NCBI RefSeq assembly: GCF_054482525.1
Contig: NZ_CM137006.1
Direction: 5' to 3' (one strand)
DNA length: 64,000 nucleotides
Shown one piece after another: positions 26,551 through 64,000 of the stretch (position 1 is its first letter; each line of letters begins with the position of its first letter). The notes under the pieces were generated by a model that was not told the DNA's origin, did not search any database, and saw only the letters and a list, made by a program, of their open reading frames with translations. Made by a program: the position numbers and the translations under genes.

Positions 26551-26589
26551 CAGTGTATTGGTAGCTAAAAAGCCAGGGGCGGTAGCGTG
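26551..26589 (+). promoter_or_regulatory. JUMPstart element with ops site (GGCGGTAGCGTG) in the wza leader; RfaH-dependent antitermination signal
   Basis: CAGTGTATTGGTAGCTAAAAAGCCAGGGGCGGTAGCGTG contains the two GGTAGC half-sites and the ops core at 26578-26589, about 180 bp upstream of the wza start. Confidence 0.85.
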
Positions 26590-34354: not shown

Positions 34355-35101
34355 ATGTTGCTTAGCATAATCACTGTCGCGTTTCGTAACCTCGCAGGGA
34401 TAGTCAAAACACATGCCTCGCTGGCGCATCTGGCGCAGGCGGACGATATCAGCTTCGAATGGATTGTTGTCGATGGCGGTTCCAATGACGGCACCCGTGA
34501 GTACCTGGAAAATCTCAATGGTATCTATAACCTACGCTTTGTCAGCGAACCAGATAACGGTATCTACGACGCCATGAACAAGGGCATTGCGATGGCACAA
34601 GGCAAGTTCGCGTTGTTTCTCAACTCAGGTGATATTTTTCATCAGGATGCCGCAAATTTTGTCCGTAAGTTAAAAGTACAAAAAGATAACGTGATGATCA
34701 CTGGCGATGCGCTGCTGGATTTTGGCGACGGGCATAAAATTAAACGTAGCGCCAAACCGGGCTGGTATATTTATCACAGCCTGCCCGCCAGTCATCAGGC
34801 GATATTTTTCCCGGTATCCGGCTTGAAAAAATGGCGTTATGACCTGGAATATAAAGTTTCTTCTGATTACGCGCTGGCGGCTAAAATGTATAAAGCTGGT
34901 TATGCATTTAGAAAACTCAATGGCCTGGTGTCTGAATTTTCTATGGGTGGAGTATCTACCACCAATAATATGGAATTGTGTGCTGACGCCAAAAAAGTCC
35001 AACGACAAATATTACATGTGCCTGGCTTCTGGACTGAATTATCCTGGCATTTACGCCAACGTACTACCTCAAAGACGAAAGCCTTATATAACAAAAGCTG
35101 A
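34355..35101 (+). CDS. wcaE: Colanic acid biosynthesis glycosyltransferase WcaE (GT2)
   Basis: 248-aa ORF with [10 protein letters not shown] and [11 protein letters not shown] motifs. Confidence 0.88.
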
Positions 35102-49453: not shown

Positions 49454-50449
49454 ATGAACGATAACGTTTTGCTCATAGGAGCTTCCGGATTCGTAGGAAC
49501 CCGACTACTTGAAACGGCAATTGCTGACTTTAATATCAAGAACCTGGACAAACAGCAGAGCCACTTTTATCCAGAAATCACACAGATTGGCGATGTTCGT
49601 GATCAACAGACACTCGACCAGGCGTTAGCCGGTTTTGACACTGTTGTACTACTGGCAGCGGAACACCGCGATGATGTCAGTCCTACTTCTCTCTATTATG
49701 ATGTCAACGTTCAGGGTACCCGCAATGTACTGGCGGCCATGGAAAAAAATGGCGTTAAAAATATCATCTTTACCAGTTCCGTTGCTGTTTATGGTTTGAA
49801 CAAACACAACCCTGACGAAAACCATCCACACGACCCTTTCAACCACTACGGCAAAAGTAAGTGGCAGGCAGAGGAGGTGCTGCGTGAATGGTATAACAAA
49901 GCACCAACAGAACGTTCATTAACCATCATCCGTCCTACCGTTATCTTCGGTGAACGCAACCGCGGTAACGTCTATAACTTGCTGAAACAGATCGCTGGCG
50001 GCAAGTTTATGATGGTGGGCGCAGGGACTAACTATAAGTCCATGGCTTATGTTGGAAACATTGTTGAGTTTATTAAGTACAAACTGAAGAATGTTGCCGC
50101 AGGTTATGAGGTTTATAACTACGTTGATAAGCCAGACCTGAACATGAACCAGTTGGTTGCTGAAGTTGAACAAAGCCTGAACAAAAAGATCCCTTCTATG
50201 CACTTGCCTTACCCACTAGGAATGCTGGGTGGATATTGCTTTGATATCCTGAGCAAAATTACGGGCAAAAAATACGCTGTCAGCTCTGTGCGCGTGAAAA
50301 AATTCTGCGCAACTACACAGTTTGACGCAACGAAAGTGCATTCTTCAGGTTTTGTGGCACCGTATACGCTGTCGCAAGGTCTGGATCGAACTCTGCAGTA
50401 TGAATTCGTCCATGCCAAAAAAGACGACATAACGTTTGTTTCTGAGTAA
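49454..50449 (+). CDS. gne: NAD-dependent epimerase of the Gne/Gnu type (UDP-GalNAc or GlcNAc-PP-undecaprenol 4-epimerase family)
   Basis: 331-aa ORF with a Rossmann N-terminus (LLIGASGFVGTRLLE), located between wcaM and galF. Assignment rests on the fold and this characteristic position. Confidence 0.7.
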   Translation: MNDNVLLIGASGFVGTRLLETAIADFNIKNLDKQQSHFYPEITQIGDVRDQQTLDQALAGFDTVVLLAAEHRDDVSPTSLYYDVNVQGTRNVLAAMEKNGVKNIIFTSSVAVYGLNKHNPDENHPHDPFNHYGKSKWQAEEVLREWYNKAPTERSLTIIRPTVIFGERNRGNVYNLLKQIAGGKFMMVGAGTNYKSMAYVGNIVEFIKYKLKNVAAGYEVYNYVDKPDLNMNQLVAEVEQSLNKKIPSMHLPYPLGMLGGYCFDILSKITGKKYAVSSVRVKKFCATTQFDATKVHSSGFVAPYTLSQGLDRTLQYEFVHAKKDDITFVSE

Positions 50450-50691: not shown

Positions 50692-51585
50692 ATGACGAAT
50701 TTAAAAGCAGTTATACCGGTAGCAGGTCTTGGGATGCATATGTTGCCTGCCACTAAGGCGATACCCAAAGAGATGCTACCGATCGTCGACAAGCCAATGA
50801 TTCAGTACATTGTTGACGAGATTGTGGCTGCAGGGATCAAAGAAATCCTCCTGGTAACTCATGCGTCCAAGAACGCGGTCGAAAACCACTTCGACACCTC
50901 TTATGAATTAGAATCTCTCCTTGAACAGCGCGTGAAGCGTCAGCTGCTGGCGGAAGTGCAGTCGATCTGTCCACCGGGAGTGACCATTATGAACGTGCGT
51001 CAGGGCGAACCTTTAGGTTTAGGCCACTCCATTTTGTGTGCGCGACCCGCCATTGGCGACAACCCATTTGTCGTGGTACTGCCAGACGTAGTGATCGACG
51101 ACGCCAGCGCCGACCCGCTGCGCTACAACCTTGCTGCCATGATTGCGCGCTTCAATGAAACGGGCCGTAGCCAGGTGCTGGCAAAACGTATGCCGGGTGA
51201 CCTTTCTGAATACTCCGTTATTCAGACCAAAGAGCCGCTGGATCGTGAAGGCAAAGTCAGCCGCATTGTTGAATTTATCGAAAAACCGGATCAGCCGCAG
51301 ACGCTGGACTCAGACATCATGGCCGTTGGTCGCTATGTGCTTTCTGCGGATATTTGGCCGGAACTTGAACGCACTCAACCTGGTGCATGGGGGCGTATTC
51401 AGCTGACTGATGCCATTGCTGAACTGGCGAAAAAACAGTCCGTTGATGCAATGCTGATGACCGGTGACAGTTACGATTGTGGCAAGAAAATGGGCTATAT
51501 GCAGGCGTTTGTGAAGTATGGACTGCGCAACCTGAAAGAAGGGGCGAAGTTCCGTAAAGGTATTGAAAAGCTGTTAAGCGAATAA
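50692..51585 (+). CDS. galF: UTP-glucose-1-phosphate uridylyltransferase paralogue GalF
   Basis: 297-aa ORF starting [41 protein letters not shown]; marks the 5' flank of O-antigen clusters. Confidence 0.93.
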
Positions 51586-51838: not shown

Positions 51839-51877
51839 CAGTACGCTGGTAGCTGTTGAGCCAGGGGCGGTAGCGTG
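51839..51877 (+). promoter_or_regulatory. JUMPstart element with ops site (GGCGGTAGCGTG) in the O-antigen cluster leader
   Basis: CAGTACGCTGGTAGCTGTTGAGCCAGGGGCGGTAGCGTG has the same architecture as the wza-leader element; ops core at 51866-51877, about 80 bp upstream of wzx. Confidence 0.85.
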
Positions 51878-51957
51878 AATTAAATGTTTATCCCATATTA
51901 CTTAACAAATTGTAAACTATCGTGCAAAATAAGACTTGTTAAGTACGTAGGCTCGTT

Positions 51958-53193
51958 ATGTTAAAAAACATCATCTATTTATTAAGCGTTCAAGGTGGCA
52001 ATTATATATTTCCATTGGTCACACTGCCTTATCTTGTCAGGATCCTTGAACCTACAGGATACGGGATATATGGGTATAGTTTTGCTGTGGTCCAATATTT
52101 TATATTATTTATTGATTACGGATTTAACTACTCAGCGCCCAAAATCATATCAATATCAAGGGAAAATACTGATTCCATAAGTAAAGTTTTTTGGAATGTA
52201 ACGTTTATCAAAATAATTGCAGCATCTCTTGGTTTGTTAATTATTTATTTAATTTCGGAATTGAATATCATTGATTACCAAATTAAATTTATCATTCTTG
52301 CATACATATCTGTCGTAGGAAATTTAATATATCCAGTATGGTTTTTTCAAGGGCTGGAAAAAATGTTAGGAATAGCGATAAGTATGTTTTCCGCACGCTT
52401 ACTTACACTATGTTTAACATTTTTATTGGTTAAAAGTGAAAAGGATCTTGGTATAGCGATAACAATACAATCATCAATAACAGTTATTGCAGGTATAATA
52501 TCTACATATTTTTTATTTTCTCTTAAAAAAATAATATGGGTACCACCATCCTTATCCAAAATGAAAGAGTTAATTTATGATGGATGGCATTACTTCATTT
52601 CCTCTGCAGCAATAAGCCTTTATACTACTAGTTCAACAATAATATTAGGTGCATTATCAGGAACAACTGCAGTGGGATATTTTATCGCTGCAGATAAAAT
52701 TAGGCTTGCACTACAAGGCGTTATTGGTCCTATAACCCAAGCTGTTTTTCCTAGAGTAACTTATATAATGAAGGATAATCATGACGATGGACTATTATTA
52801 GCCAGGAAAGTGTTTCGATGGCAATTTTCACTGATGTTCGTACTTTCCATATTTCTTTACTTTTTTGCAGACGATATAATTTTAATCATGTATGGAAAAA
52901 CGTATCATGAATCTTTAGAAATACTCAAGGTTTTAGCTTTTACTCCAGCAATAGTTACGGTAAGTAATTATATTGCAATTTTAGTAATGATCCCTATTGG
53001 TATGAAAAAAGAATTTACAAAAATTATTACTACCAGTGGATTAATAGGCCTACTGATAATTACTTATTTGACTAATGAATACTCAGGAGTTGGTACAGCA
53101 ATAGGAGTTATTTCAACTGAGTTTATAATAATGGCGAGATTTTACTTTTTGATTAAGAAAACAAATAAATTAAATAATTTAAATTTATTGTAG
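51958..53193 (+). CDS. wzx: O-antigen flippase Wzx
   Basis: 411-aa AT-rich polytopic membrane ORF with a PST-family N-terminus (...IFPLVTLPYLVRILEPTGYGIYG...). Confidence 0.8.
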   Translation: MLKNIIYLLSVQGGNYIFPLVTLPYLVRILEPTGYGIYGYSFAVVQYFILFIDYGFNYSAPKIISISRENTDSISKVFWNVTFIKIIAASLGLLIIYLISELNIIDYQIKFIILAYISVVGNLIYPVWFFQGLEKMLGIAISMFSARLLTLCLTFLLVKSEKDLGIAITIQSSITVIAGIISTYFLFSLKKIIWVPPSLSKMKELIYDGWHYFISSAAISLYTTSSTIILGALSGTTAVGYFIAADKIRLALQGVIGPITQAVFPRVTYIMKDNHDDGLLLARKVFRWQFSLMFVLSIFLYFFADDIILIMYGKTYHESLEILKVLAFTPAIVTVSNYIAILVMIPIGMKKEFTKIITTSGLIGLLIITYLTNEYSGVGTAIGVISTEFIIMARFYFLIKKTNKLNNLNLL

Positions 53194-53201
53194 GGCTAAC
53201 A

Positions 53202-53927
53202 ATGAATAAACCAACTTTAACAATAGTTACCGTTGTGTACAATGGCGAAATGTATATCGAAGATACTATAAAAAGTGTCTTATCACAAAACTGCAATGAT
53301 GACATTGAATATATTATAATTGATGGTGCATCAACGGATAATACTCTAAATATTGTTAATTCTTACAAAAATGAAATTTCATATATCATTTCTGAAAATG
53401 ATAATGGTATATATGATGCAATGAATAAAGGTGTGTTAAAAGCATCTGGAAATTATATAGGATTTATAAACGCTGATGATTTTTATAATAAAGATGTATT
53501 ATGTCAAGTAATAAAAGTAATGAAAGAAAATAAATATGATGTTATTTATGGAAATATGTCTTTGGTAGAGGCTGATAGCTTGGATGTTATTCAGGTCCGG
53601 AGGCCTAAAGACTGGAAACTACATATAGATATGAATTTAAGCCATCCGGCCACATTTATTAGAAAAGATATCCACAGAGAAAATTTATTTAATACTAGCT
53701 ATAAAATTGCTTCTGATTATGATCTTTTGCTAAAATTGAAGAAACAAGGTTATATCTTTCATTATATTGATAAAAATATCTCTTCGATGAGAAATGCCGG
53801 CCTTAGCGCTAAAAATGTAAAATTAGCATTGGAGGAAGCGAGACAAATCCGAAAGAAAAGAAACGGGAAATTATATGCGGCGTTAGCAGATATTTACCTA
53901 TTTATGAGAAAAGTTATAAAAAGATGA
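53202..53927 (+). CDS. O-antigen glycosyltransferase, GT2 family (WcaE-like)
   Basis: 241-aa ORF with IIIDGASTDNT and [11 protein letters not shown] motifs shared with WcaE. Confidence 0.75.
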   Translation: MNKPTLTIVTVVYNGEMYIEDTIKSVLSQNCNDDIEYIIIDGASTDNTLNIVNSYKNEISYIISENDNGIYDAMNKGVLKASGNYIGFINADDFYNKDVLCQVIKVMKENKYDVIYGNMSLVEADSLDVIQVRRPKDWKLHIDMNLSHPATFIRKDIHRENLFNTSYKIASDYDLLLKLKKQGYIFHYIDKNISSMRNAGLSAKNVKLALEEARQIRKKRNGKLYAALADIYLFMRKVIKR

Positions 53928-55159
53928 TTAATAGAAACATAAAAATTAGTGCTTCATTTATTTCAATAATTTATTTGCCTTTTGCTTTATTATTAGCAAT
54001 GATTGAAATGATTAATGGGGCCAGATGGAGTGTTTATGTATGTTCATTTATGCTAGGGGTACTAGCATTTTTGTTAATACCTTATGAAAATTGGGATTTG
54101 ACTAGGCATTATGAAACATATTTATATGTTAGTCAAACATCACTAAACAAAGTTTTTGAAAATAGTGACAATAGATATATTACAATAAATACTGTTATTT
54201 ATTTATTTAAATCTTTAGGAATAAAAAAAGAATTTTTACCTTTTTTTTCAACATTTTTATCATATATTTTTTATTTTAATATATATGTTAATCACATTAA
54301 AAAATACAATCCGGAATTATCTCATAGATGTATATATTTATATATTCTAATAAGCGTAATCCCATTTTTTGCTATAGCTAGTTCATTGCGGCAATATCTT
54401 GCATTTAGTATTATGCTTTATATGATCATACAGTATTTCACCAGTGAAAATAATAGGTATAAGTCACAAAAAATTATATTCTCTGCAATTATTTCATGTT
54501 GTATTCATCCCAGCGCAATACTATTGCTAGGTGTTTTTTTTGTTAGCAAATTAATAAGACTTAACAAAACAATATTGTATTTAATAATATTAGTTCTAAT
54601 CCTTAACCATGATGGATTAATATCTTCTTTGCTATTTCAATTGATTAGGCCATTATTGGAAAGCTTAGGTTTTTACTTTCCCGAATATATGGACTCTGTA
54701 ACCATAGGCATAAGCAATAGCTTGCTGAGCACTAATGAATATATCTTGAATAAGATCATATTACCGTCAGTGTTTTTTATTTTTACTTTTATCTATTTAA
54801 TTTTATTTAATAAAAAAATGACGAGGCAAGAGTCACAAATCAAAAATTTTTGCAGTTTACTTCTTTTGCTGATATGCCTTTTATCGTTATCGCCTGATTT
54901 ATTTTATCGATTTTCCATTTTCTGGGTGTTATTATATAGTTATATATTTTTCTCCTACGATATTAATAAAATTAGCAAACTATGTAAGCATCTGATCTTC
55001 TTAATACTCATTACCGCATGTTCAATCATAAATTTGGCACAGGCAAATATGGGTAAAGATATTATTTATGTGTCTTGGTGCGATATATTGTATAAGCCCT
55101 CATTATTCCTATTCAATAAAGAAGTTAAATCAGCAGAATATATAAGAGTGAGTCAATAA
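53924..55159 (+). CDS. wzy: O-antigen polymerase Wzy
   Basis: 411-aa very hydrophobic, AT-rich ORF with many predicted membrane segments and no recognisable catalytic motif, as is typical of Wzy. Confidence 0.7.
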   Translation: MINRNIKISASFISIIYLPFALLLAMIEMINGARWSVYVCSFMLGVLAFLLIPYENWDLTRHYETYLYVSQTSLNKVFENSDNRYITINTVIYLFKSLGIKKEFLPFFSTFLSYIFYFNIYVNHIKKYNPELSHRCIYLYILISVIPFFAIASSLRQYLAFSIMLYMIIQYFTSENNRYKSQKIIFSAIISCCIHPSAILLLGVFFVSKLIRLNKTILYLIILVLILNHDGLISSLLFQLIRPLLESLGFYFPEYMDSVTIGISNSLLSTNEYILNKIILPSVFFIFTFIYLILFNKKMTRQESQIKNFCSLLLLLICLLSLSPDLFYRFSIFWVLLYSYIFFSYDINKISKLCKHLIFLILITACSIINLAQANMGKDIIYVSWCDILYKPSLFLFNKEVKSAEYIRVSQ

Positions 55160-55160
55160 A

Positions 55161-56228
55161 ATGTCCATTGGAGTCTTTAAGCTGTATGAAAATAAAATAG
55201 GTGGCACTGAGAAAGCAGTTGAAAATCTAATTGATATATTAACTAAAAACAGCCTACAAGTGAGATGTTTTTCAGCAATAAACGCACAAGAGATACAAGT
55301 TAGAGAAGATAATCGGAAAACCTACTTATTCCAAGACAATACTGCATATGAAGAAAGCAAATTAAGGTTTTACATTAAATATTTGTTTTTTTTGAGTGCC
55401 AAAAGTAAAGACCTTGAATTAATAATTTCCACGGATATAGCTACATCATCATTATTGTTATTGATTGGTTTTTTTCGGTGTAATAAGAATAAAATTATTT
55501 GCTGGGAACATTATCCATTTGACAAGAATAGTATTTTTTGGAGAAAAGTATTTAAATTTCTTTTGTCTCTTAATAAAAAAGCTGTAGTAGTTTGTAATTC
55601 TCACAAGGAAAAAGATAAGTTTACTTTTTGTAAAAGGGTTGTAATTATACCAAATTCAATCAAAACGCAAAAATATAAGCGCATACATCAAGGAAAAGAA
55701 ACTCTTGATTTGATTTATATTGGTCGGATTGTTAAAGATAAAGGAGTTGAAAGGTTAATTAATGCAGTAATAAATCACCCGTCTACAAAAAAGTATGTTT
55801 TACACATTGTAGGAGGTGGTCAAGAGCTGGAGTATCTCAAATCTAAATATAAGAATAACAACCAAATACACTTTCATGGACCGAGTTTAAACACAGATGT
55901 TTTTTTGGCAAAAAGTGATGTTTTTGTATCCGGTTCATACTTTGAATGTTTTCCTGTTACAATACTTGAAGCTATGTCCTACGGATTACCTGTAATTTCA
56001 ATGGATATATCTGGAGGGACAAGTAGCGTGATTTCTTCATCGGGTGGCGGATTTGTGTGTCAATCTCAAATTGAATTTCAGGAAAAACTAACTTACTTTG
56101 AAGATAATGTTAAACGAACCGAACACGGAAATGCAGGATTCCTATTCGTGAATAGACATTATACAGAAGAAATAGTTAGTGCTCAGTGGATGAGTTTGAT
56201 CAATCGAGCCAATAGTCAAGAAAATTAA
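55161..56228 (+). CDS. O-antigen glycosyltransferase, GT4 family
   Basis: 355-aa ORF with a GT-B C-terminal motif region (...SGSYFECFPVTILEAMSYGLPVIS...). Confidence 0.75.
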   Translation: MSIGVFKLYENKIGGTEKAVENLIDILTKNSLQVRCFSAINAQEIQVREDNRKTYLFQDNTAYEESKLRFYIKYLFFLSAKSKDLELIISTDIATSSLLLLIGFFRCNKNKIICWEHYPFDKNSIFWRKVFKFLLSLNKKAVVVCNSHKEKDKFTFCKRVVIIPNSIKTQKYKRIHQGKETLDLIYIGRIVKDKGVERLINAVINHPSTKKYVLHIVGGGQELEYLKSKYKNNNQIHFHGPSLNTDVFLAKSDVFVSGSYFECFPVTILEAMSYGLPVISMDISGGTSSVISSSGGGFVCQSQIEFQEKLTYFEDNVKRTEHGNAGFLFVNRHYTEEIVSAQWMSLINRANSQEN

Positions 56229-56248
56229 GGTATTGGAGCTATTAAAGT

Positions 56249-57265
56249 ATGAGCATACTTGTGACTGGTGGGGCTGGCTATATTGGCTCACATGCTATAT
56301 TAACTTTATTGCAAAATGGATATGATGTTATATCGCTAGATAATTATTGCAATTCCTCTCCAAAATCTCTAGAACGAGTAGAGGAAATTTGCTTATCTAA
56401 GATAAAAAAATTACGTGGTGATATTAGAGATAGACATATATTAAAAAATATCTTTTCAAAATATAATGTTTCTACTGTAATGCATTTTGCGGGTTTAAAA
56501 TCTGTTAACGAGTCCATTAAAAAACCATTAGAATATTACGACACAAATCTTTTGGGGACTCTAATATTACTTGATGAAATGCAGAAAGCGAATATTTCTA
56601 ATCTAATTTTTAGTTCGTCTGCTACTGTCTATGGCAATCCTCATTATGTTCCAATATCTGAAAAACACCCTGTCGGTGAGGTGATCAATCCGTACGGTCG
56701 TTCAAAGTTTATGGTGGAACATATATTGCGTGATTTTTGTAACGCGAATAGCGACGCAAATATCACAATACTAAGATATTTTAATCCTGTAGGTGCTCAT
56801 AAGACTGGATTAATTGGAGAAGATCCTTTAGGAACTCCTAATAACCTGTTTCCCTATGTTGCGCAAGTCGCAATTGGAAAATTACCCTATCTAAATGTTT
56901 TTGGTAATAAATATATGACAAAAGATGGAACAGGTGTAAGAGATTATATCCATGTAGTCGATTTAGTTGAGGGGCATCTTGCCGCTTTAAAAAATCTCAA
57001 TAGAAACCGGGGGCTTAAAGTTTTTAATTTAGGCACTGGTCAAGGTTATAGTGTGTTAGATATCATCGACGCTTTTAAACTGGAAACAGGACGCGATATA
57101 CCTTTCCGTATCGTTTCTGAGCGAAATGGAGATGTGGCTGAATGTTGGTCCGATCCTTCCTTAGCAAACGAGCAGCTAAGTTGGGTTGCTAAAAGGACTC
57201 TTAATAATATGGTGGAAGATGCATGGAGATGGCAAACAATGAATCCAAATGGATATAAAGAGTAA
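56249..57265 (+). CDS. GalE-family UDP-hexose 4-epimerase (UDP-Glc/Gal or UDP-GlcNAc/GalNAc)
   Basis: 338-aa ORF starting MSILVTGGAGYIGSH..., with catalytic YGRSK. Substrate specificity cannot be told from sequence alone. Confidence 0.8.
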   Translation: MSILVTGGAGYIGSHAILTLLQNGYDVISLDNYCNSSPKSLERVEEICLSKIKKLRGDIRDRHILKNIFSKYNVSTVMHFAGLKSVNESIKKPLEYYDTNLLGTLILLDEMQKANISNLIFSSSATVYGNPHYVPISEKHPVGEVINPYGRSKFMVEHILRDFCNANSDANITILRYFNPVGAHKTGLIGEDPLGTPNNLFPYVAQVAIGKLPYLNVFGNKYMTKDGTGVRDYIHVVDLVEGHLAALKNLNRNRGLKVFNLGTGQGYSVLDIIDAFKLETGRDIPFRIVSERNGDVAECWSDPSLANEQLSWVAKRTLNNMVEDAWRWQTMNPNGYKE

Positions 57266-57333
57266 ATTGAAACAATTATAATCATCCATTTCATTGCTTA
57301 CTGTATTGTTATCTATATATATGAAAACAAAAA

Positions 57334-58341
57334 ATGAAAATATTATATGATGGGATTGTGAAAAGTTTACAATCATATGGTGGTATCACTGTATACTTTG
57401 AAGAAATCATTAAGAGATTAAAAAATGACGAATACAAATTCATTCAATTTAATGATAAAAATGAAAATCACAATGATGATCTCCATCGGCCATGCCGGTT
57501 TTTAGAACGATATAGATGTTTTGAAGCATTAAAAAGTGATTCAGATTACAGTATATTTCATTCTACATATTATCGGGTTCCGAAAGATGGGGAATATGCG
57601 GTTGTGACCACGGTCCACGATTTCACATATGAATTGTATATGAAAGGACTTCGGCGCAATGTTCATAGCTTACAAAAAAGATGGGCTGTGAAACATAGCG
57701 ATGCAATCATTTGTGTCTCTAATAATACAGCCAAGGATTTAATTAATTTCTTTAAGGTTGATGAAAAAAAGATACATGTTATTCATAATGGTGTATCGGA
57801 AGATTATAGACACTTAAATCTAGAAAAAGAAAATTTTGTGCTTTTTGTCGGTGCTCGTTCAGGATATAAAAATTTTGAGCTTGCAGTTAAAGCCGTTTCT
57901 AAACTTTTTGATACTAATCTTAAAATAGTCGGCGGAGGTGGTTTAAATAAAGCAGAAATGAAGTTACTATCTGAATATCTTCCAGAAAGATTCCAGTACT
58001 TAGGGAAGGTATCAAATGAAAAACTAAATATATTATATAATTCGGCTTATTGCTTAATCTATCCTTCAGAATATGAAGGGTTTGGAATTCCCTTGCTTGA
58101 GGCTATGCGAACTGGCTGTCCTGTGATAGCCGTAAATAGATCATCAATACCCGAGGTTGTGGGGGATAGTGCGATTTTAGTCGAAGAAGTATCAATTGAA
58201 AGTTTATTCTCAGCTTTATTAAGTGTAGAAGCTAACGCTAATGAATTAAAAAATAAAGGATTAGCGCAATCTAATAAATTTTCATGGGGGAAGTGTTTCT
58301 CCGAAACATATAATCTATATAAATCACTATCTAAGTTTTGA
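57334..58341 (+). CDS. O-antigen glycosyltransferase, GT4 family
   Basis: 335-aa ORF with the motif region ...[25 protein letters not shown]... Confidence 0.75.
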
Positions 58342-58351
58342 GAGGTTATTT

Positions 58352-59473
58352 ATGTGTAAGAAAGCTTTAATTACAGGAATTACCGGGCAAGATGGTTCCT
58401 ACTTGGCAGAATTTCTGCTTAAAAAAGGCTATGAGGTTCATGGAATAAAACGTCGATCTTCCTTGTTTAATACTGACCGTATTGATCATATATATCAAGA
58501 CCCACACCATCGTAATTTAAAATTACAACTTCATTATGGTGATTTAACAGATACTTCTAATTTGACTCGGATATTATCTGAAGTTCAACCTGATGAAGTT
58601 TATAATCTTGGCGCAATGAGTCACGTAGCTGTTTCCTTCGAATCCCCAGAATATACAGCTGATGTTGATGCTATAGGTACTTTACGATTATTGGAAGCTA
58701 TTCGTTTTTTGGGATTAGAAAAAAAAACCCGATTTTATCAGGCGTCAACCTCTGAATTGTATGGATTAGTTCAGGAAGTTCCACAAAAAGAGACAACGCC
58801 GTTCTATCCTCGTTCACCTTATGCCGTAGCTAAACTGTATGCATATTGGATCACTGTAAACTATCGTGAGTCTTATGGAATGTATGCATGTAACGGTATT
58901 TTGTTCAATCATGAATCCCCACGTCGTGGGGAAACGTTTGTAACACGTAAAATCACACGTGCTATAGCTAATATATCGCAGGGAATAGAAAAATGCTTAT
59001 ATCTTGGCAACATGGATTCTTTACGCGATTGGGGGCATGCGAAAGATTATGTTCGTATGCAATGGATGATGCTTCAACAAGACCAGCCAGAAGACTTTGT
59101 TATTGCCACCGGCAAACAAATATCTGTACGTGAATTTGTCCGTATGTCTGCTAAAGAAGTTGGACTTGAACTTGAGTTTTCCGGTACTGGTGTTGATGAG
59201 ATTGCATTTGTTGTAAATAAAACATCAGATTGCGCCGTTGGTGTTAATATTGGTGATGTTATTGTTCGCGTTGACCCTCGTTATTTTCGACCAGCAGAAG
59301 TTGAAACTCTTCTTGGTGATCCAACAAAAGCAAAAAATGTCTTGGGTTGGGAGCCAGAGATTACAGTTGAAGAAATGTGTGCAGAAATGGTGGCTAGTGA
59401 TTTAGAAAAAGCTAAACAGCATGCACTTCTTAAAAGCCATGGTTTTGACGTGGCAGTCTCTTTGGAGCGTTAA
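58352..59473 (+). CDS. gmd: GDP-mannose 4,6-dehydratase (O-antigen copy)
   Basis: 373-aa ORF with high protein similarity by eye to the colanic-acid Gmd (35691..36812), but with AT-rich codon usage. Confidence 0.93.
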
Positions 59474-59476
59474 AGT

Positions 59477-60442
59477 ATGACCAAGAAGCGAATTTTTGTG
59501 GCTGGACATCGTGGGATGGTTGGTTCTGCTATTTGTCGTCAATTATTAGCACGTAATGATGTTGAGTTAATTGTCAAAACTCACAAAGAACTCGATTTGA
59601 CAGTTCAAAAGGATGTTGAATGTTTTTTTGAGCAAGAGAGAATAGATCAGGTTTACCTTGCAGCAGCAAAAGTAGGAGGAATTCATGCTAATAACACTTT
59701 TCCAGCTGAATTTATTTATCAGAACCTTCTTATTGAAAGCAATATTATTCACTCATCTTACAAAGCGGGCATAAAGAAACTATTATTCTTAGGGTCAAGT
59801 TGTATCTATCCAAAGTTTGCAGAACAGCCAATGAAAGAATCTGCACTTTTGACGGGAACTCTTGAGCCTACTAATGAGCCTTATGCTATTTCCAAAATAG
59901 CAGGTATAAAGCTATGTGAATCTTATAATCGCCAATATGGATGTGATTATCGCAGTGTAATGCCTACTAACTTATATGGTATGAATGATAATTTTCATCC
60001 CAATAACTCACATGTAATTCCAGCGCTTATGCGGCGTTTTCATGAAGCAAAGGAACTTGGTTTAAATGAAGTGGTTGTCTGGGGAACGGGAACTCCAAAA
60101 CGCGAGTTTTTATATGTTGATGATATGGCCGCTGCATCAGTATATGTGATGGAGCTTGATGATGAAATTTATAAAAAAAATACTCAACCAATGTTATCTC
60201 ATATTAACGTAGGTACTGGTGTTGATTGTTCCATACGTGAAATGGCAGAAACAATGGCTTTAGTTGTTGGCTATGATGGAAAAATTGTTTTTGATATAAC
60301 AAAACCAGATGGTTCGCCTCGTAAACTTATGGATGTTACACGCCTTGAGAATTTGGGTTGGAAATATCGTTATAATTTAAAACAAGGACTAGAATTAACA
60401 TATAAATGGTTTATAAATAATCTTGACTCATTTAGGAGTTAA
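59477..60442 (+). CDS. fcl: GDP-L-fucose synthase (O-antigen copy)
   Basis: 321-aa ORF starting [19 protein letters not shown]..., paralogous to the colanic-acid Fcl. Confidence 0.93.
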
Positions 60443-60444
60443 TA

Positions 60445-60900
60445 TTGAACAAGAGATTAGAAACAGAGTTATTTAAATCAATAGTTGAACATACTCCACT
60501 AATCTCGATAGACCTTATTATAAGAAACGAAGATGGTAAGGCGCTGCTTGGTCAGCGCCTTAATCGTCCAGCACAAAATTATTGGTTTGTGCCGGGGGGA
60601 CGGATTCTTAAAGATGAGTCTTTCGAGAACGCATTCAAAAGAGTTACTTTAGAAGAATTGGGTGTTCAAATTAGCATTAATGAAGCAAAATTTCTTGGGA
60701 TTTATGAACATTTCTACAGCGACAATTTTTCTGGGACTTGTTTTTCAACTCATTATGTCGTACACGGATATGAGATTAGTTTGATGCCACATCAAATTAA
60801 CTATCCAACACTACAACATAGTACTTACAATTGGTTCGATATAGCCGAATTGTTAGCTAATTCCTCAGTTCATCAGTACACAAAAAATTATTTTAAGTGA
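60445..60900 (+). CDS. gmm: GDP-mannose mannosyl hydrolase (Nudix; O-antigen copy)
   Basis: 151-aa ORF with an apparent TTG start at 60445, seven nt after an AGGAG; similar to the colanic-acid Gmm core (...NYWFVPGGR...). Confidence 0.75.
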   Translation: MNKRLETELFKSIVEHTPLISIDLIIRNEDGKALLGQRLNRPAQNYWFVPGGRILKDESFENAFKRVTLEELGVQISINEAKFLGIYEHFYSDNFSGTCFSTHYVVHGYEISLMPHQINYPTLQHSTYNWFDIAELLANSSVHQYTKNYFK

Positions 60901-60911
60901 AGGTTATTTAT

Positions 60912-62297
60912 ATGCTACTTCCTGTTGTAATGGCCGGTGGTTCTGGAACTAGATTGTGGCCACTTTCTCGAACACTATATCCGAAGCAATTCCTATCGTT
61001 AACTAGTCGTTTGACTATGCTACAAGAGACCTTAAGAAGGCTTGAAGGGGTTGAACATCGTCCTGCTCTGGTTATTTGTAATGAAGTTCATCGTTTTATC
61101 GTTGCAGAACAGATGCGTAATGTAAATTTAGCGAATAGTGGCATTTTACTAGAGCCGATAGGTCGTAATACAGCCCCCGCAGTTGCGCTTGCTGCTCTTA
61201 AAGCGATTTCATCAGGTGAGGATCCAATACTGCTTGTACTAGCAGCCGATCATGAAATACAAGACCAAAAGCGCTTTATATCGTCAATATTGGCTGCAAA
61301 AGAATTTGCAGAGGAAGGTAAGCTGGTAACTTTTGGTATTGTGCCAACCAAACCCGAAACTGGATATGGCTACATAAAAACCGGAGAAAATTTAAATGAA
61401 TATGGTTTTAAAGTTTCTGCTTTTGTTGAAAAGCCTGAGCTAGATGTGGCCAAAAAATATCTTGAAGATGGAGATTATCTTTGGAATAGTGGAATATTCA
61501 TGTTTAGGGCTTCTGTGTTTATTGATGAGTTGAATAAATTTAGACCAGACATACTAAAAATATGCCAACAAGCATTGAAGTCCTCTACACAAGATCTTGA
61601 TTTTATCCGTATAGATAATGACTCATTTAGTTGTTGCCCTGAAGAATCCATTGATTACGCTGTTATGGAGAAAACAACAGAGGCTGTGGTAGTTCCATTA
61701 AATGCCCACTGGAGCGATGTTGGTTCTTGGTCTGCATTATGGGAAATTAGCAGAAAAGATAAAAGTGGAAATGCAATTAGAGGAGATGTATTAATTCATG
61801 ATTCTTCTGACAGTTATCTTTACTCACAACATAGATTAATTGGTGTAGTAGGAGTTAAAGATTTAGTAGTTGTTGAAACTAAAGATGCTATTCTCGTTGC
61901 GCATAAAGATAAAGTTCAACAGGTAAAAAATATTGTAGAAAAACTTAAAGTTAATAACCGTACGGAATATCTGCAGCATCGTGAAATATTTAGGCCATGG
62001 GGCAGTCATGACTCTATAGCGGAAGGATCTCGATTTGAGGTTAAACATGTCGTTATTCATCCTGGACATAAAACTGCTAAACAGATTCATTACCATCGTA
62101 CTGAGCATTGGATTGTTGTTTCTGGAACAGCAAAAGTCCATTATGAAGATGAAATATTTCTTGTTTCTGAAAATGAATCAACTTATATACCAATAGGTGT
62201 ACCTCATTTTATTGAGAATCCAGGAAAGATCCCTTTGGAGATTATTGAGGTACGTTCAGGTGTCTACTTGGATGAAGATGATGTTGTTAGAATCTAA
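60912..62297 (+). CDS. manC: Mannose-1-phosphate guanylyltransferase (O-antigen copy)
   Basis: I place the start at the ATG at 60912 ([20 protein letters not shown]...); the ORF track uses an in-frame GTG at 60897. Paralogue of cpsB. Confidence 0.88.
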   Translation: MLLPVVMAGGSGTRLWPLSRTLYPKQFLSLTSRLTMLQETLRRLEGVEHRPALVICNEVHRFIVAEQMRNVNLANSGILLEPIGRNTAPAVALAALKAISSGEDPILLVLAADHEIQDQKRFISSILAAKEFAEEGKLVTFGIVPTKPETGYGYIKTGENLNEYGFKVSAFVEKPELDVAKKYLEDGDYLWNSGIFMFRASVFIDELNKFRPDILKICQQALKSSTQDLDFIRIDNDSFSCCPEESIDYAVMEKTTEAVVVPLNAHWSDVGSWSALWEISRKDKSGNAIRGDVLIHDSSDSYLYSQHRLIGVVGVKDLVVVETKDAILVAHKDKVQQVKNIVEKLKVNNRTEYLQHREIFRPWGSHDSIAEGSRFEVKHVVIHPGHKTAKQIHYHRTEHWIVVSGTAKVHYEDEIFLVSENESTYIPIGVPHFIENPGKIPLEIIEVRSGVYLDEDDVVRI

Positions 62298-62380
62298 AAT
62301 GATGCTGGATACTAATGCAACATTATTATTCGTAATGCTGTACTGACGTTATTTAATTATGATTATTATTGGATGTTAAA

Positions 62381-63127
62381 ATGAAAGTCAGTATTATTAC
62401 AGTGACTTATAATAGTGAAAAGACTTTAAGGGATACTTTAGAGTCAATAGAGTTGCAAACCTATAAAGATATAGAGTATATAATTATTGATGGTGGTTCT
62501 ACAGATAATACGTTAAAACTAATTAACGAAGTATCAACAAGAGTAACCAAATGTCTATCAGAAAGCGATAACGGTATCTATGATGCTTTAAATAAAGGTA
62601 TAAATTTATCTACGGGAGATATTATTGGATTCGTTCATTCTGATGACCTTTTAGCAAGACCTGATATTATTGAAACTATTGTAAGCCGTTTCCATGAGAC
62701 AAAAGCGGATGTTGTATACGGTGATTTGGTTTTTTTCGAAAAAAACCAAACTGATATAATCAAACGATACTGGCGTAGTGGTCCTTTTAAACGTTCTAAG
62801 CTATCATTAGGCTGGGCACCACCGCATCCATCTTTCTATATGAGGAGGGAATTATATAAAGACGATGGATATTTTGATTTATCCTATAGGATTGCTGCAG
62901 ACTATGATCAGATGGTCAGGATTTTGAAACGTGATGATATTAAAGTTATTTATGTTCCTCAAGTATTTGTAAAGATGAGATTGGGTGGGGAAAGTACCAG
63001 AATTGATAACGCGATATCAAGTACAAAGGAAATTGTAGAAGTTATGAAAAACCATAATGTAAATTGGAAAATTGCTATCATTATCAGAAAAATCTCAAAA
63101 CTAATGCAATTGTTTGCGCATAAATAA
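62381..63127 (+). CDS. O-antigen glycosyltransferase, GT2 family (WcaE-like)
   Basis: I place the start at the ATG at 62381 (MKVSIITVTYNSEKTL...), with IIIDGGSTDNT and DNGIYDALNKG motifs; the ORF track starts at a TTG at 62369. Confidence 0.75.
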   Translation: MKVSIITVTYNSEKTLRDTLESIELQTYKDIEYIIIDGGSTDNTLKLINEVSTRVTKCLSESDNGIYDALNKGINLSTGDIIGFVHSDDLLARPDIIETIVSRFHETKADVVYGDLVFFEKNQTDIIKRYWRSGPFKRSKLSLGWAPPHPSFYMRRELYKDDGYFDLSYRIAADYDQMVRILKRDDIKVIYVPQVFVKMRLGGESTRIDNAISSTKEIVEVMKNHNVNWKIAIIIRKISKLMQLFAHK

Positions 63128-63151
63128 TTTTATTATTGGTAAGGTTTTTAT

Positions 63152-64000
63152 ATGAAAAAATTAACCTGCTTTAAAGCCTATGATATTCGCGGGAAATTAG
63201 GCGAAGAACTGAATGAAGATATTGCGTGGCGCATTGGTCGCGCCTATGGCGAATTTCTCAAACCGAAAACCATTGTGTTAGGCGGTGACGTCCGCCTCAC
63301 CAGCGAAACCTTAAAACTGGCGCTGGCGAGAGGTTTACAGGATGCGGGCGTCGATGTGCTGGATATCGGCATGTCCGGCACCGAAGAGATCTATTTCGCC
63401 ACGTTCCATCTCGGCGTGGATGGCGGCATTGAAGTTACCGCCAGCCATAATCCGATGGATTATAACGGCATGAAGCTGGTTCGCGAGGGGGCTCGCCCGA
63501 TCAGCGGAGATACCGGACTGCGCGACGTCCAGCGTCTGGCTGAAGCCAACGACTTTCCTCCCGTCGATGAAACCAAACGCGGTCGCTATCAGCAAATCAA
63601 CCTGCGTGACGCTTACGTTGATCACCTGTTCGGTTATATCAATGTCAAAAACCTCACGCCGCTCAAGCTGGTGATCAACTCCGGGAACGGCGCAGCGGGT
63701 CCGGTGGTGGACGCTATCGAAGCCCGCTTTAAAGCCCTCGGCGCACCTGTGGAATTGATCAAAGTGCACAACACGCCGGACGGCAATTTCCCCAACGGTA
63801 TTCCTAACCCGCTGCTGCCGGAATGTCGCGACGACACCCGCAATGCGGTCATTAAACACGGCGCGGATATGGGCATTGCCTTTGATGGCGATTTTGACCG
63901 CTGTTTCCTGTTTGACGAAAAAGGGCAGTTTATCGAGGGCTACTACATTGTCGGCCTGCTGGCAGAAGCGTTCCTCGAAAAAAATCCCGGCGCGAAGATC
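63152..64000 (+). CDS. manB: Phosphomannomutase (O-antigen copy), 5' 283 codons; the gene continues past the right edge of the window
   Basis: Starts [14 protein letters not shown]... Nucleotide sequence is nearly identical to cpsG from the ATG onward and is GC-rich, unlike the AT-rich genes just upstream. Confidence 0.9.

Follow-up and report, generated by a model that had tools for sequence, protein, structure and literature searches.

A WcaE-related glycosyltransferase subfamily in the Escherichia coli O11 O-antigen cluster and its candidate role in fucose transfer

The O11 O-antigen cluster of Escherichia coli makes GDP-L-fucose, so some enzyme must transfer the fucose. Two genes of the cluster, here called GT2a and GT2b, are at present labelled just 'glycosyltransferase family 2 protein'. 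The gain from assigning them is mainly one of annotation. The O11 cluster and the family of GT2 fucosyltransferases are already known: WbdO of E. coli O157 has been assayed, and structures of WrtF have been solved. Serogroup O11 is prevalent among porcine ExPEC, and the right assignment of its transferases could aid the glycoengineering of O11 conjugate antigens.

The O11 locus and its glycosyltransferase genes

We analysed a window of 64 kb. Over positions 51900-63200 it matches E. coli PCN033, a porcine ExPEC strain serotyped O11, at 100% identity, and other genomes in which wzx and wzy are annotated as 'O11 family' at 99.9% or more. The whole O11 cluster was found in 65 complete genomes. 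The window thus represents a chromosome segment of E. coli O11, in which the colanic acid cluster (wcaE included) lies upstream and is followed by gnu-galF and then by the O11 O-antigen cluster. The O11 cluster has already been published (accession HQ388393; Li et al. 2011, as cited in PMC4578781). The gene order in Table 1 was taken from the RefSeq annotation of one matching genome, together with Pfam and NCBIfam.

Table 1. Features of the colanic acid and O11 O-antigen region, in window coordinates
Feature	Coordinates	Strand	Evidence
wcaE, colanic acid GT2 glycosyltransferase	34355..35101	+	TIGR04009 511.8 bits, PF00535
gnu, Und-PP-GlcNAc 4-epimerase giving Und-PP-GalNAc, first sugar	49454..50449	+	RefSeq annotation, SDR Pfam match
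galF	50692-51585		
ops element GGCGGTAG, JUMPstart region upstream of wzx	51866..51873	+	
wzx, O11 flippase	51958..53193	+	PF01943 4.7e-57; PGAP 'O11 family O-antigen flippase'
GT2a, WrtF/WbdO-family GT2 (GT-A, inverting)	53202..53927	+	PF00535 8.3e-29
wzy, O11 polymerase	53924..55159	+	EpsG PF14897; PGAP name
GT4a, retaining GT-B glycosyltransferase	55161..56228	+	PF00534 3e-26
galE, UDP-glucose 4-epimerase	56249..57265	+	PRK10675 449 bits, cut-off 394
GT4b, retaining GT-B glycosyltransferase	57334..58341	+	PF00534 3.4e-29
gmd-fcl-gmm-manC, GDP-L-fucose supply module	58352..62297	+	Pfam, RefSeq annotation
gmd and fcl, in the same cluster as GT2a and GT2b	58352-60442		
GT2b, WfeY/WbyL/WbyQ-type GT2 between manC and manB	62381..63127	+	PF00535 1e-29
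manB (cpsG-like), cut by the window end	63152..64000	+	RefSeq annotation, Pfam

The gnu gene is located between wcaM and galF. GT2a, the first glycosyltransferase gene of the O11 cluster, shares 4 bp with wzy, and manB, with 54% GC, forms the boundary of the low-GC cluster. The function of the ops element is presumed from what is established for such elements.

The shared motif pair and the nucleotide-binding site

The original prediction was that WcaE, GT2a and GT2b share a distinctive motif pair, and that one GT2 subfamily is consequently used in both polysaccharide pathways. A six-frame scan of the 64 kb bore out the first part: the patterns I[IV][IV]DG.S[TN]D.T and DNGIYDA[ML]NKG each matched exactly these three proteins, with a spacing of 18-19 residues between the two motifs. 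The first motif reads IIIDGASTDNT in GT2a, and GT2b carries IIIDGGSTDNT and DNGIYDALNKG. The translations are of 241 aa (GT2a) and 248 aa (GT2b and WcaE), and their coordinates agree with the RefSeq gene calls. Homology between the proteins extends over their full length, with 36% identity between GT2a and GT2b (E 4e-44), 31% between GT2a and WcaE (E 4e-29) and 29% between GT2b and WcaE (E 5e-16), and the three are mutual best matches within the window. Family assignment was done with Pfam and NCBIfam profiles, and all three proteins passed the PF00535 (GT2) cut-off of 23.3 bits (GT2a, 101.1; GT2b, 104.1; WcaE, 52.8). By these alignments, WcaE, GT2a and GT2b are paralogues in a WcaE/WbdO/WrtF-type subfamily of CAZy family 2, and the use of one subfamily in both pathways is confirmed. 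We also considered GT2a and GT2b as orthologues of WcaE and rejected this, since their TIGR04009 scores were 100.1 and 65.5 bits against a cut-off of 369.2. The paralogues have the motif pair and the fold in common with WcaE, but differ from it in the class of their active-site signature.

WrtF (PDB 9OMH-9OMN) was the best solved relative of GT2a (E 6.5e-22), GT2b (E 1e-24) and WcaE (E 3e-22), and for all three proteins its E-value was 7-16 orders of magnitude below that of the next-ranking GT2 in the PDB. When an AF2 model of GT2a (pLDDT 96.9) was compared with the PDB by Foldseek, which labels the 9OMH-9OMN chains 'WrtF fucosyltransferase', the top 15 matches were all WrtF (TM 0.75-0.81, rmsd ~2 Å), and all top matches were GT2 enzymes of the GT-A type. 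WrtF of Rhizobium tropici CIAT 899 is a GT2 alpha-1,4-L-fucosyltransferase with GDP-L-fucose as its donor (PMC12595478). In this enzyme, Asp66 hydrogen-bonds guanine N1/N2, Gly68-Ile69 pack against the guanine base, Tyr70 stacks the fucose, the backbone carbonyl of Val39 binds the guanine amine and Asp167 is the catalytic base; WrtF is metal independent, and its 191-200 loop is disordered and without basic residues (PMC12595478).

The WrtF residues Asp66-x-Gly68-Ile69-Tyr70 align with D-N-G-I-Y of the second motif, and the first motif (hhhDGxS.D.T) corresponds to the end of strand beta2, where Val39 sits. In WrtF numbering, D66, G68, I69, Y70, H142 and D167 were invariant in all E. coli members aligned, and the equivalents of Asp66, Gly68-Ile69 and His142 were invariant across alignments of 13-68 sequences that included WcaE, GT2a and GT2b. 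At the DxD position the first Asp is replaced in each protein, with NADD in GT2a, HSDD in GT2b, NSGD in WcaE and GADD in the metal-independent WrtF. Going by this residue correspondence, the motif pair is the donor-nucleotide (GDP) binding site of a known GT-A/GT2 subfamily. The Asp of the second motif would hold guanine N1/N2, with Gly-Ile packing on the base and Tyr stacking the sugar. WrtF resembles the three proteins in its GT-A fold, in 26-31% sequence identity and in the retention of Asp-x-Gly-Ile-Tyr, His142 and Asp167. It differs from GT2a and GT2b in having GADD, His-Asn and Phe191, where GT2a has NADD, GT2b has HSDD and both have His-Pro and Met-Arg, and its pathway, an ABC-type OPS with a 6dTal/Glc acceptor, is unlike the cluster of GT2a and GT2b.

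The two motifs could in principle be the generic nucleotide-binding motifs of GT2 enzymes, silent on subfamily or donor. Their positions do fit the generic pattern hhhDDGStD ... NxGxxxAxNxG, and both WcaA (a GT2 encoded in the same window) and WbdN of O157 show N-x-G...N there. However, neither WcaA nor WbdN has the exact motif pair, and their identity to WcaE, GT2a and GT2b is only 15-25%, so that the pair is the mark of a subfamily and not of GT2 enzymes in general. The mutual best matches of the three proteins and their guanine-contact residue, which is Asp and not the generic Asn, also argue against a generic origin. On the strength of the WrtF match margin, the six-frame motif scan and the low identity to WcaA and WbdN, we rejected the generic reading, which we regard as barely credible, and retained the interpretation of the motif pair as a GDP site.

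The subfamily had been described as small, and this part of the original prediction did not survive. Of 8,000 candidates scored, 7,538 were relatives of GT2a at E<=1e-10, so that at least 7,538 are present in the database, and GT2b has at least 5,935 database relatives at E<=1e-40. The peptide GIYDA[ML]NK was found in at least 600 genome stretches (one genome per species) from many phyla, which among the matches listed include Bacteroidota, Campylobacterota, Cyanobacteria, Firmicutes, Planctomycetota and CPR.

All 12 E. coli O clusters examined that have a family member (O11 and O157 counted) contain gmd and 11 contain fcl, the twelfth having gmd without fcl. Across phyla, gmd lay within 10 kb of 19 of 80 diverse family loci and fcl within 10 kb of 18, against 4-5 for the rml genes, which were the only genes with which gmd/fcl proximity was contrasted. 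In approximately 75% of the family loci in other phyla, neither gmd nor fcl was found within 10 kb. Given this proportion, and the genomic context of the GT2a homologue P0009 described below, the subfamily may not be restricted to fucose.

The active sites of the subfamily fall into classes. Among 82 sampled family proteins, 63 combined xxDD with His-Pro, mostly followed by Met191-Arg; 14 combined xxGD with His-Gln and had Phe, Tyr, Val or Ile at position 191; and five were mixed. GT2a (NADD / His-Pro / Met-Arg) and GT2b (HSDD / His-Pro / Met-Arg) belong to the dominant class, as do WfeY and the Yersinia protein in the wbyL position, and the DD/His-Pro/Met-Arg part of the GT2a signature is common to WfeY and GT2b. 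The members that have been assayed or crystallised, WcaE (NSGD / His-Gln / Phe), WbdO and WrtF, all fall outside this class. At positions 143/191, GT2a and GT2b have Pro/Met, WcaE and WbdO have Gln and Phe/Tyr, and WrtF has Asn/Phe. Asn143 and Phe/Tyr191 are given as conserved in GT2 fucosyltransferases, and both positions are held to be important in WrtF (PMC12595478); two proteins assigned as fucosyltransferases, WfeY and its Yersinia counterpart at the wbyL position, also have Pro143/Met191. The signature class failed as a predictor of the donor, with gmd and fcl together located near 14 of the 63 xxDD proteins and 3 of the 14 xxGD proteins. As both classes are equally associated with gmd and fcl, we rejected the active-site signature as a means to separate fucose users from other enzymes.

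Fucose transfer and the assignment of GT2b

The absence of a GT11-type fucosyltransferase, which had been noted from the sequence alone, was upheld by profile and motif searches and extends to GT10. The Pfam profiles PF00852 and PF01531 (GT10/GT11) gave no match among the proteins of either the O-antigen or the colanic acid cluster, and neither the GT11 motif HxRRGDY nor the GT10 (FEN) motif was found in the six frames of the 64-kb window. GT2 enzymes invert and GT4 enzymes retain the anomeric configuration (CAZy), and the formation of alpha-L-Fuc from GDP-beta-L-Fuc needs inversion. Because WrtF is the best solved relative, WbdO is a member of the subfamily and GT2 enzymes invert, the view that at least one of the O-antigen GT2 proteins transfers fucose is well supported.

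The comparison with characterised fucosyltransferases that had been called for points the same way. Besides WrtF, it involves WbdO of E. coli O157, a biochemically proven alpha-1,4-fucosyltransferase onto Glc (Melamed & Brockhausen 2023, as cited in PMC12595478). WbdO, WcaE, B. fragilis Bf4306 and M. avium GtfD are all named as further GT2 fucosyltransferases (PMC12595478). We took WbdO from the Sakai genome, where its RefSeq name is 'wcaE', and it aligned as a member of the subfamily, with 26-31% identity to GT2a and GT2b over the full length. WbdO is like these proteins in its motif pair, its length of 248 aa and its location in a Wzx/Wzy O-antigen cluster with gmd-fcl-gmm-manC-manB. Unlike GT2a and GT2b, it has a signature of the NAGD / His-Gln / Tyr class, as WcaE does, and it uses Glc-beta-1,3-GalNAc-PP-Und, rather than the first sugar, as acceptor.

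An alternative is that fucose is moved by one of the retaining enzymes, GT4a or GT4b, as is thought for WcaI, and that neither O-antigen GT2 handles fucose. WcaI is a GT4 and a candidate colanic acid fucosyltransferase, and it is established that colanic acid has beta-L-Fuc. A retaining GT4 acting on GDP-beta-L-Fuc would, however, yield beta-L-Fuc, a residue seldom found in O antigens. The glycosyltransferase situated inside the GDP-Fuc module is GT2b, which is kept with the module in ten E. coli clusters and in Yersinia, and the best sequence and structural relatives of both GT2a and GT2b are fucosyltransferases. We consider transfer by a GT4 enzyme to be very improbable, and favour an inverting GT2.

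The original prediction also held that none of the O-antigen transferases could be assigned from sequence. This was too cautious for GT2b, which homology, gene position and co-occurrence with gnu make assignable. A 248-aa GT2 is encoded between manC and manB in ten of the E. coli O clusters examined, namely O11, O43, O41 (two forms), O168, O36, O159 and three whose O type is unassigned. GT2b shares 95% identity with its O43 counterpart and 69% with those of A38 and 779, against 51-53% with WfeY (O41, O168, O36). The manC-manB proteins form two clades with ~51% identity between them: a GT2b-type clade (O11, O43, A38, strain 779) with 69-95% identity inside, and a WfeY-type clade (O41, O168, O36, Ecol_517) with 90-94%. 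The gnu gene was present in 5/5 GT2b-type clusters versus 0/5 WfeY-type clusters, a count from ten related clusters that are phylogenetically non-independent. The O41-family cluster occurs in two forms with the same upstream genes, one of which swaps WfeY for a GT2b-type gene and gains gnu.

The wfeY gene is common to O36, O41, O156, O159 and O168, the sole shared disaccharide of which is alpha-L-Fuc-(1->3)-D-GlcNAc (PMC10606467). In Yersinia pseudotuberculosis, the WbyL protein of gmd-fcl-manC-wbyL-manB is assigned to alpha-L-Fuc-(1->3)-GlcNAc, and where gnu is present wbyQ stands in place of wbyL and is assigned to alpha-L-Fuc-(1->3)-GalNAc (PMC5399914). The WfeY, WbyL and WbyQ assignments were made by correlation of structures with genes (PMC10606467, PMC5399914). 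GT2b resembles WfeY and the Yersinia WbyL/WbyQ proteins in its manC-manB position, its length and its HSDD / His-Pro / Met-Arg signature, the likeness to WbyQ being one of gene context (gnu). Unlike WfeY, GT2b is in a clade of its own with gnu, and WfeY is nearer (68% identity) than GT2b (53%) to the Yersinia protein P0210, which occupies gmd-fcl-manC-GT-manB.

The homology to WfeY and the Yersinia protein, the gene position and the gnu co-occurrence together suggest that GT2b is probably an alpha-1,3-L-fucosyltransferase acting on Und-PP-GalNAc. The last glycosyltransferase gene of a cluster often acts first (PMC7685785), and as the last such gene of its cluster GT2b fits this common reverse-order rule, consistent with a role in the first step. 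The GT2b and WfeY clades may encode acceptor specificity for GalNAc versus GlcNAc, respectively, swapped together with gnu. In related clusters, a GT2b-type gene between manC and manB accompanied by gnu would predict Fuc-GalNAc, and a WfeY-type gene without gnu would predict Fuc-GlcNAc.

The donor of GT2a and the assembly of the O11 unit

One of the O-antigen GT2 proteins had been predicted to transfer fucose; for GT2b this is well supported, and for GT2a it is only plausible. GT2a keeps all of the invariant residues, including the guanine-binding Asp66 equivalent. It is 68% identical to a homologue in S. enterica Hvittingfoss (O16), 43-44% identical to a GT2 located after wzx in O43, ~44% identical to a Citrobacter protein and 45% identical to a Vibrio owensii protein, and all of these relatives are in gmd-containing clusters. 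Identity to the proteins in the WfeY/WbyL position is 31-34%, and GT2a is not located between manC and manB. P0009, the closest homologue from outside the enterobacteria (55%), has rmlB and CMP-sugar genes in its cluster and no gmd within 10 kb.

These features suggest that GT2a is probably a second GDP-sugar transferase. The likeliest reading of its donor is a second alpha-L-Fuc, although our confidence that GT2a is a fucosyltransferase is evenly balanced. Those one-fucose clusters that could be checked (O157 and SD2019180) carry one family GT2. As background to which we gave no weight, O159 and S. dysenteriae type 4 may combine two fucoses with two GT2s of the family. We lean somewhat against, but take seriously, the reading that only GT2b transfers fucose and that GT2a is an inverting enzyme for beta-D-Gal or beta-D-Glc (from a UDP-sugar) or for beta-D-Man (from GDP-Man). 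The rmlB-associated context of P0009 and the many family loci without nearby gmd/fcl are in keeping with such a donor, the O11 cluster has its own galE, which implies a high demand for UDP-Gal, and GT2a is without Asn143 and Phe191. Against it stand the retained Asp66 equivalent, the DD/His-Pro/Met-Arg signature as in WfeY and GT2b, the gmd-containing clusters of the E. coli, Citrobacter and Vibrio relatives, and the single family GT2 of the one-fucose clusters. We retain a second alpha-L-Fuc as the working assignment for GT2a.

The subfamily consists of inverting GT-A enzymes, and each member characterised so far is a GDP-beta-L-fucose:acceptor alpha-L-fucosyltransferase. We infer the donor sugars, linkages and order of action in O11 as follows. 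WecA would produce Und-PP-GlcNAc, which Gnu would epimerise to Und-PP-GalNAc. GT2b would then attach the first alpha-L-Fuc to this acceptor, with 1->3 as the likeliest linkage, after which alpha-linked D-sugars would be added by the two GT4 enzymes, with UDP-Gal provided by galE. GT2a, encoded by the first glycosyltransferase gene, would act late and with inversion, most likely adding the second alpha-L-Fuc. As a joint explanation of the locus, a fucose-type GT2 subfamily with motifs at the GDP site, together with this assembly order, has our good confidence.

Finally, the Arg conserved after position 191 in the dominant active-site class maps to the WrtF loop described above, which is disordered and has no basic residue. 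The authors of the WrtF study proposed 'NXDD' enzymes for trapping a productive GDP-Fuc conformation (PMC12595478). It is conceivable, though in our view rather unlikely, that the Arg of the dominant class closes over the GDP diphosphate and gives this class a distinct, charge-assisted stabilisation of the leaving group, with GT2a (NADD) as an example of an 'NXDD' enzyme.

Coupled active-site classes across the GT2 family

Active-site columns were tallied in 82 ORFs of the WcaE/WbdO/WrtF-type GT2 subfamily from loci L007-L086; GT2a and GT2b, the two O-antigen paralogues of the window, carry the signature of the larger class. Two of the columns showed near-perfect coupling across phyla. Most family ORFs (63/82) combined xxDD with His-Pro (plus Met-Arg), 14 of the 82 combined xxGD with His-Gln (plus Phe, Tyr, Val or Ile), and only 5/82 displayed a mixed state. 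The dominant xxDD and His-Pro class contains none of the experimentally studied family members.

Asn143 (WrtF numbering) has been given as conserved in WbdO and WcaE (PMC12595478). However, our HMMER and MAFFT alignments place Gln at this column in both proteins. It should be noted that WbdO (ECs_2843), the O-antigen fucosyltransferase of O157 Sakai, bears the gene name 'wcaE' in the RefSeq record (NC_002695.2), and that the true wcaE (ECs_2860) bears the same name, a duplicate label that represents an annotation trap.

Family relatives in possibly non-fucose settings

The O cluster of E. coli E5, which encodes a family relative with the motifs DRGIYDAWNKA and GSDD, contains gmd, gmm, manC and manB, lacks fcl, and additionally encodes an SDR and a DegT aminotransferase. 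This cluster looks to be of the colitose or perosamine type, and the relative may use a different GDP-6-deoxyhexose as donor.

P0009, which is the nearest homologue of GT2a outside the enterobacteria (55% identity), is located in a Wzx/Wzy capsule-like cluster on metagenome scaffolds L099/L100. Other genes of this cluster include rmlB, one for a second GT2 (254 aa), one for a CMP-sugar synthetase and one of the HMGL-like/MptE-like type. No gmd was found within 10 kb. The presence of rmlB and the CMP-sugar synthetase, together with the lack of a nearby gmd, hints that the family is not confined to fucose.

Module exchange and boundaries of the O-antigen cluster

Comparison of the O41 locus (L006, NZ_CP019245.1) with L096 (NZ_CM130024.1) and L004/L092 (NZ_CP028738.1) revealed two versions of the O41-family cluster, which have wzx, wzy and the upstream GT proteins in common. 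One version carries a WfeY-type GT2 between manC and manB, with a 1425-bp manB and no gnu, whilst the other combines gnu and a cpsG-like manB with a GT2b-type GT2. Exchange of this module is expected to replace GlcNAc by GalNAc as the first sugar.

In the window, manB (cpsG-like by annotation) has a GC content of 54%, against 26-39% in the remainder of the O cluster, and a compositional and recombination boundary lies directly 3' of GT2b. The antisense ORF inside manB is most likely spurious. The ops element GGCGGTAG occurs four times in the window (1.35 expected), and the two extra copies are probably chance matches.

Coordinates of the features discussed
Feature	Position	Strand	Remarks
ops element GGCGGTAG	window 51866-51873	+	upstream of wzx
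ops element GGCGGTAG	window 26578-26585		upstream of colanic acid operon
Extra GGCGGTAG copy	window 15155	minus	
Extra GGCGGTAG copy	window 39245		
WcaE	window 34355-35101		
GT2a	window 53202-53927		
GT2b	window 62381-63127		
manB	window 63152-64000		
Remainder of O cluster	window 51958-63127		
ORF, 174 aa	window 63335-63859	minus	antisense within manB; no RefSeq annotation
WbdO	L002:24733-25479		O157 Sakai
Family relative, 297 aa	L097:11862-12755		E. coli E5, NZ_CP104521.1
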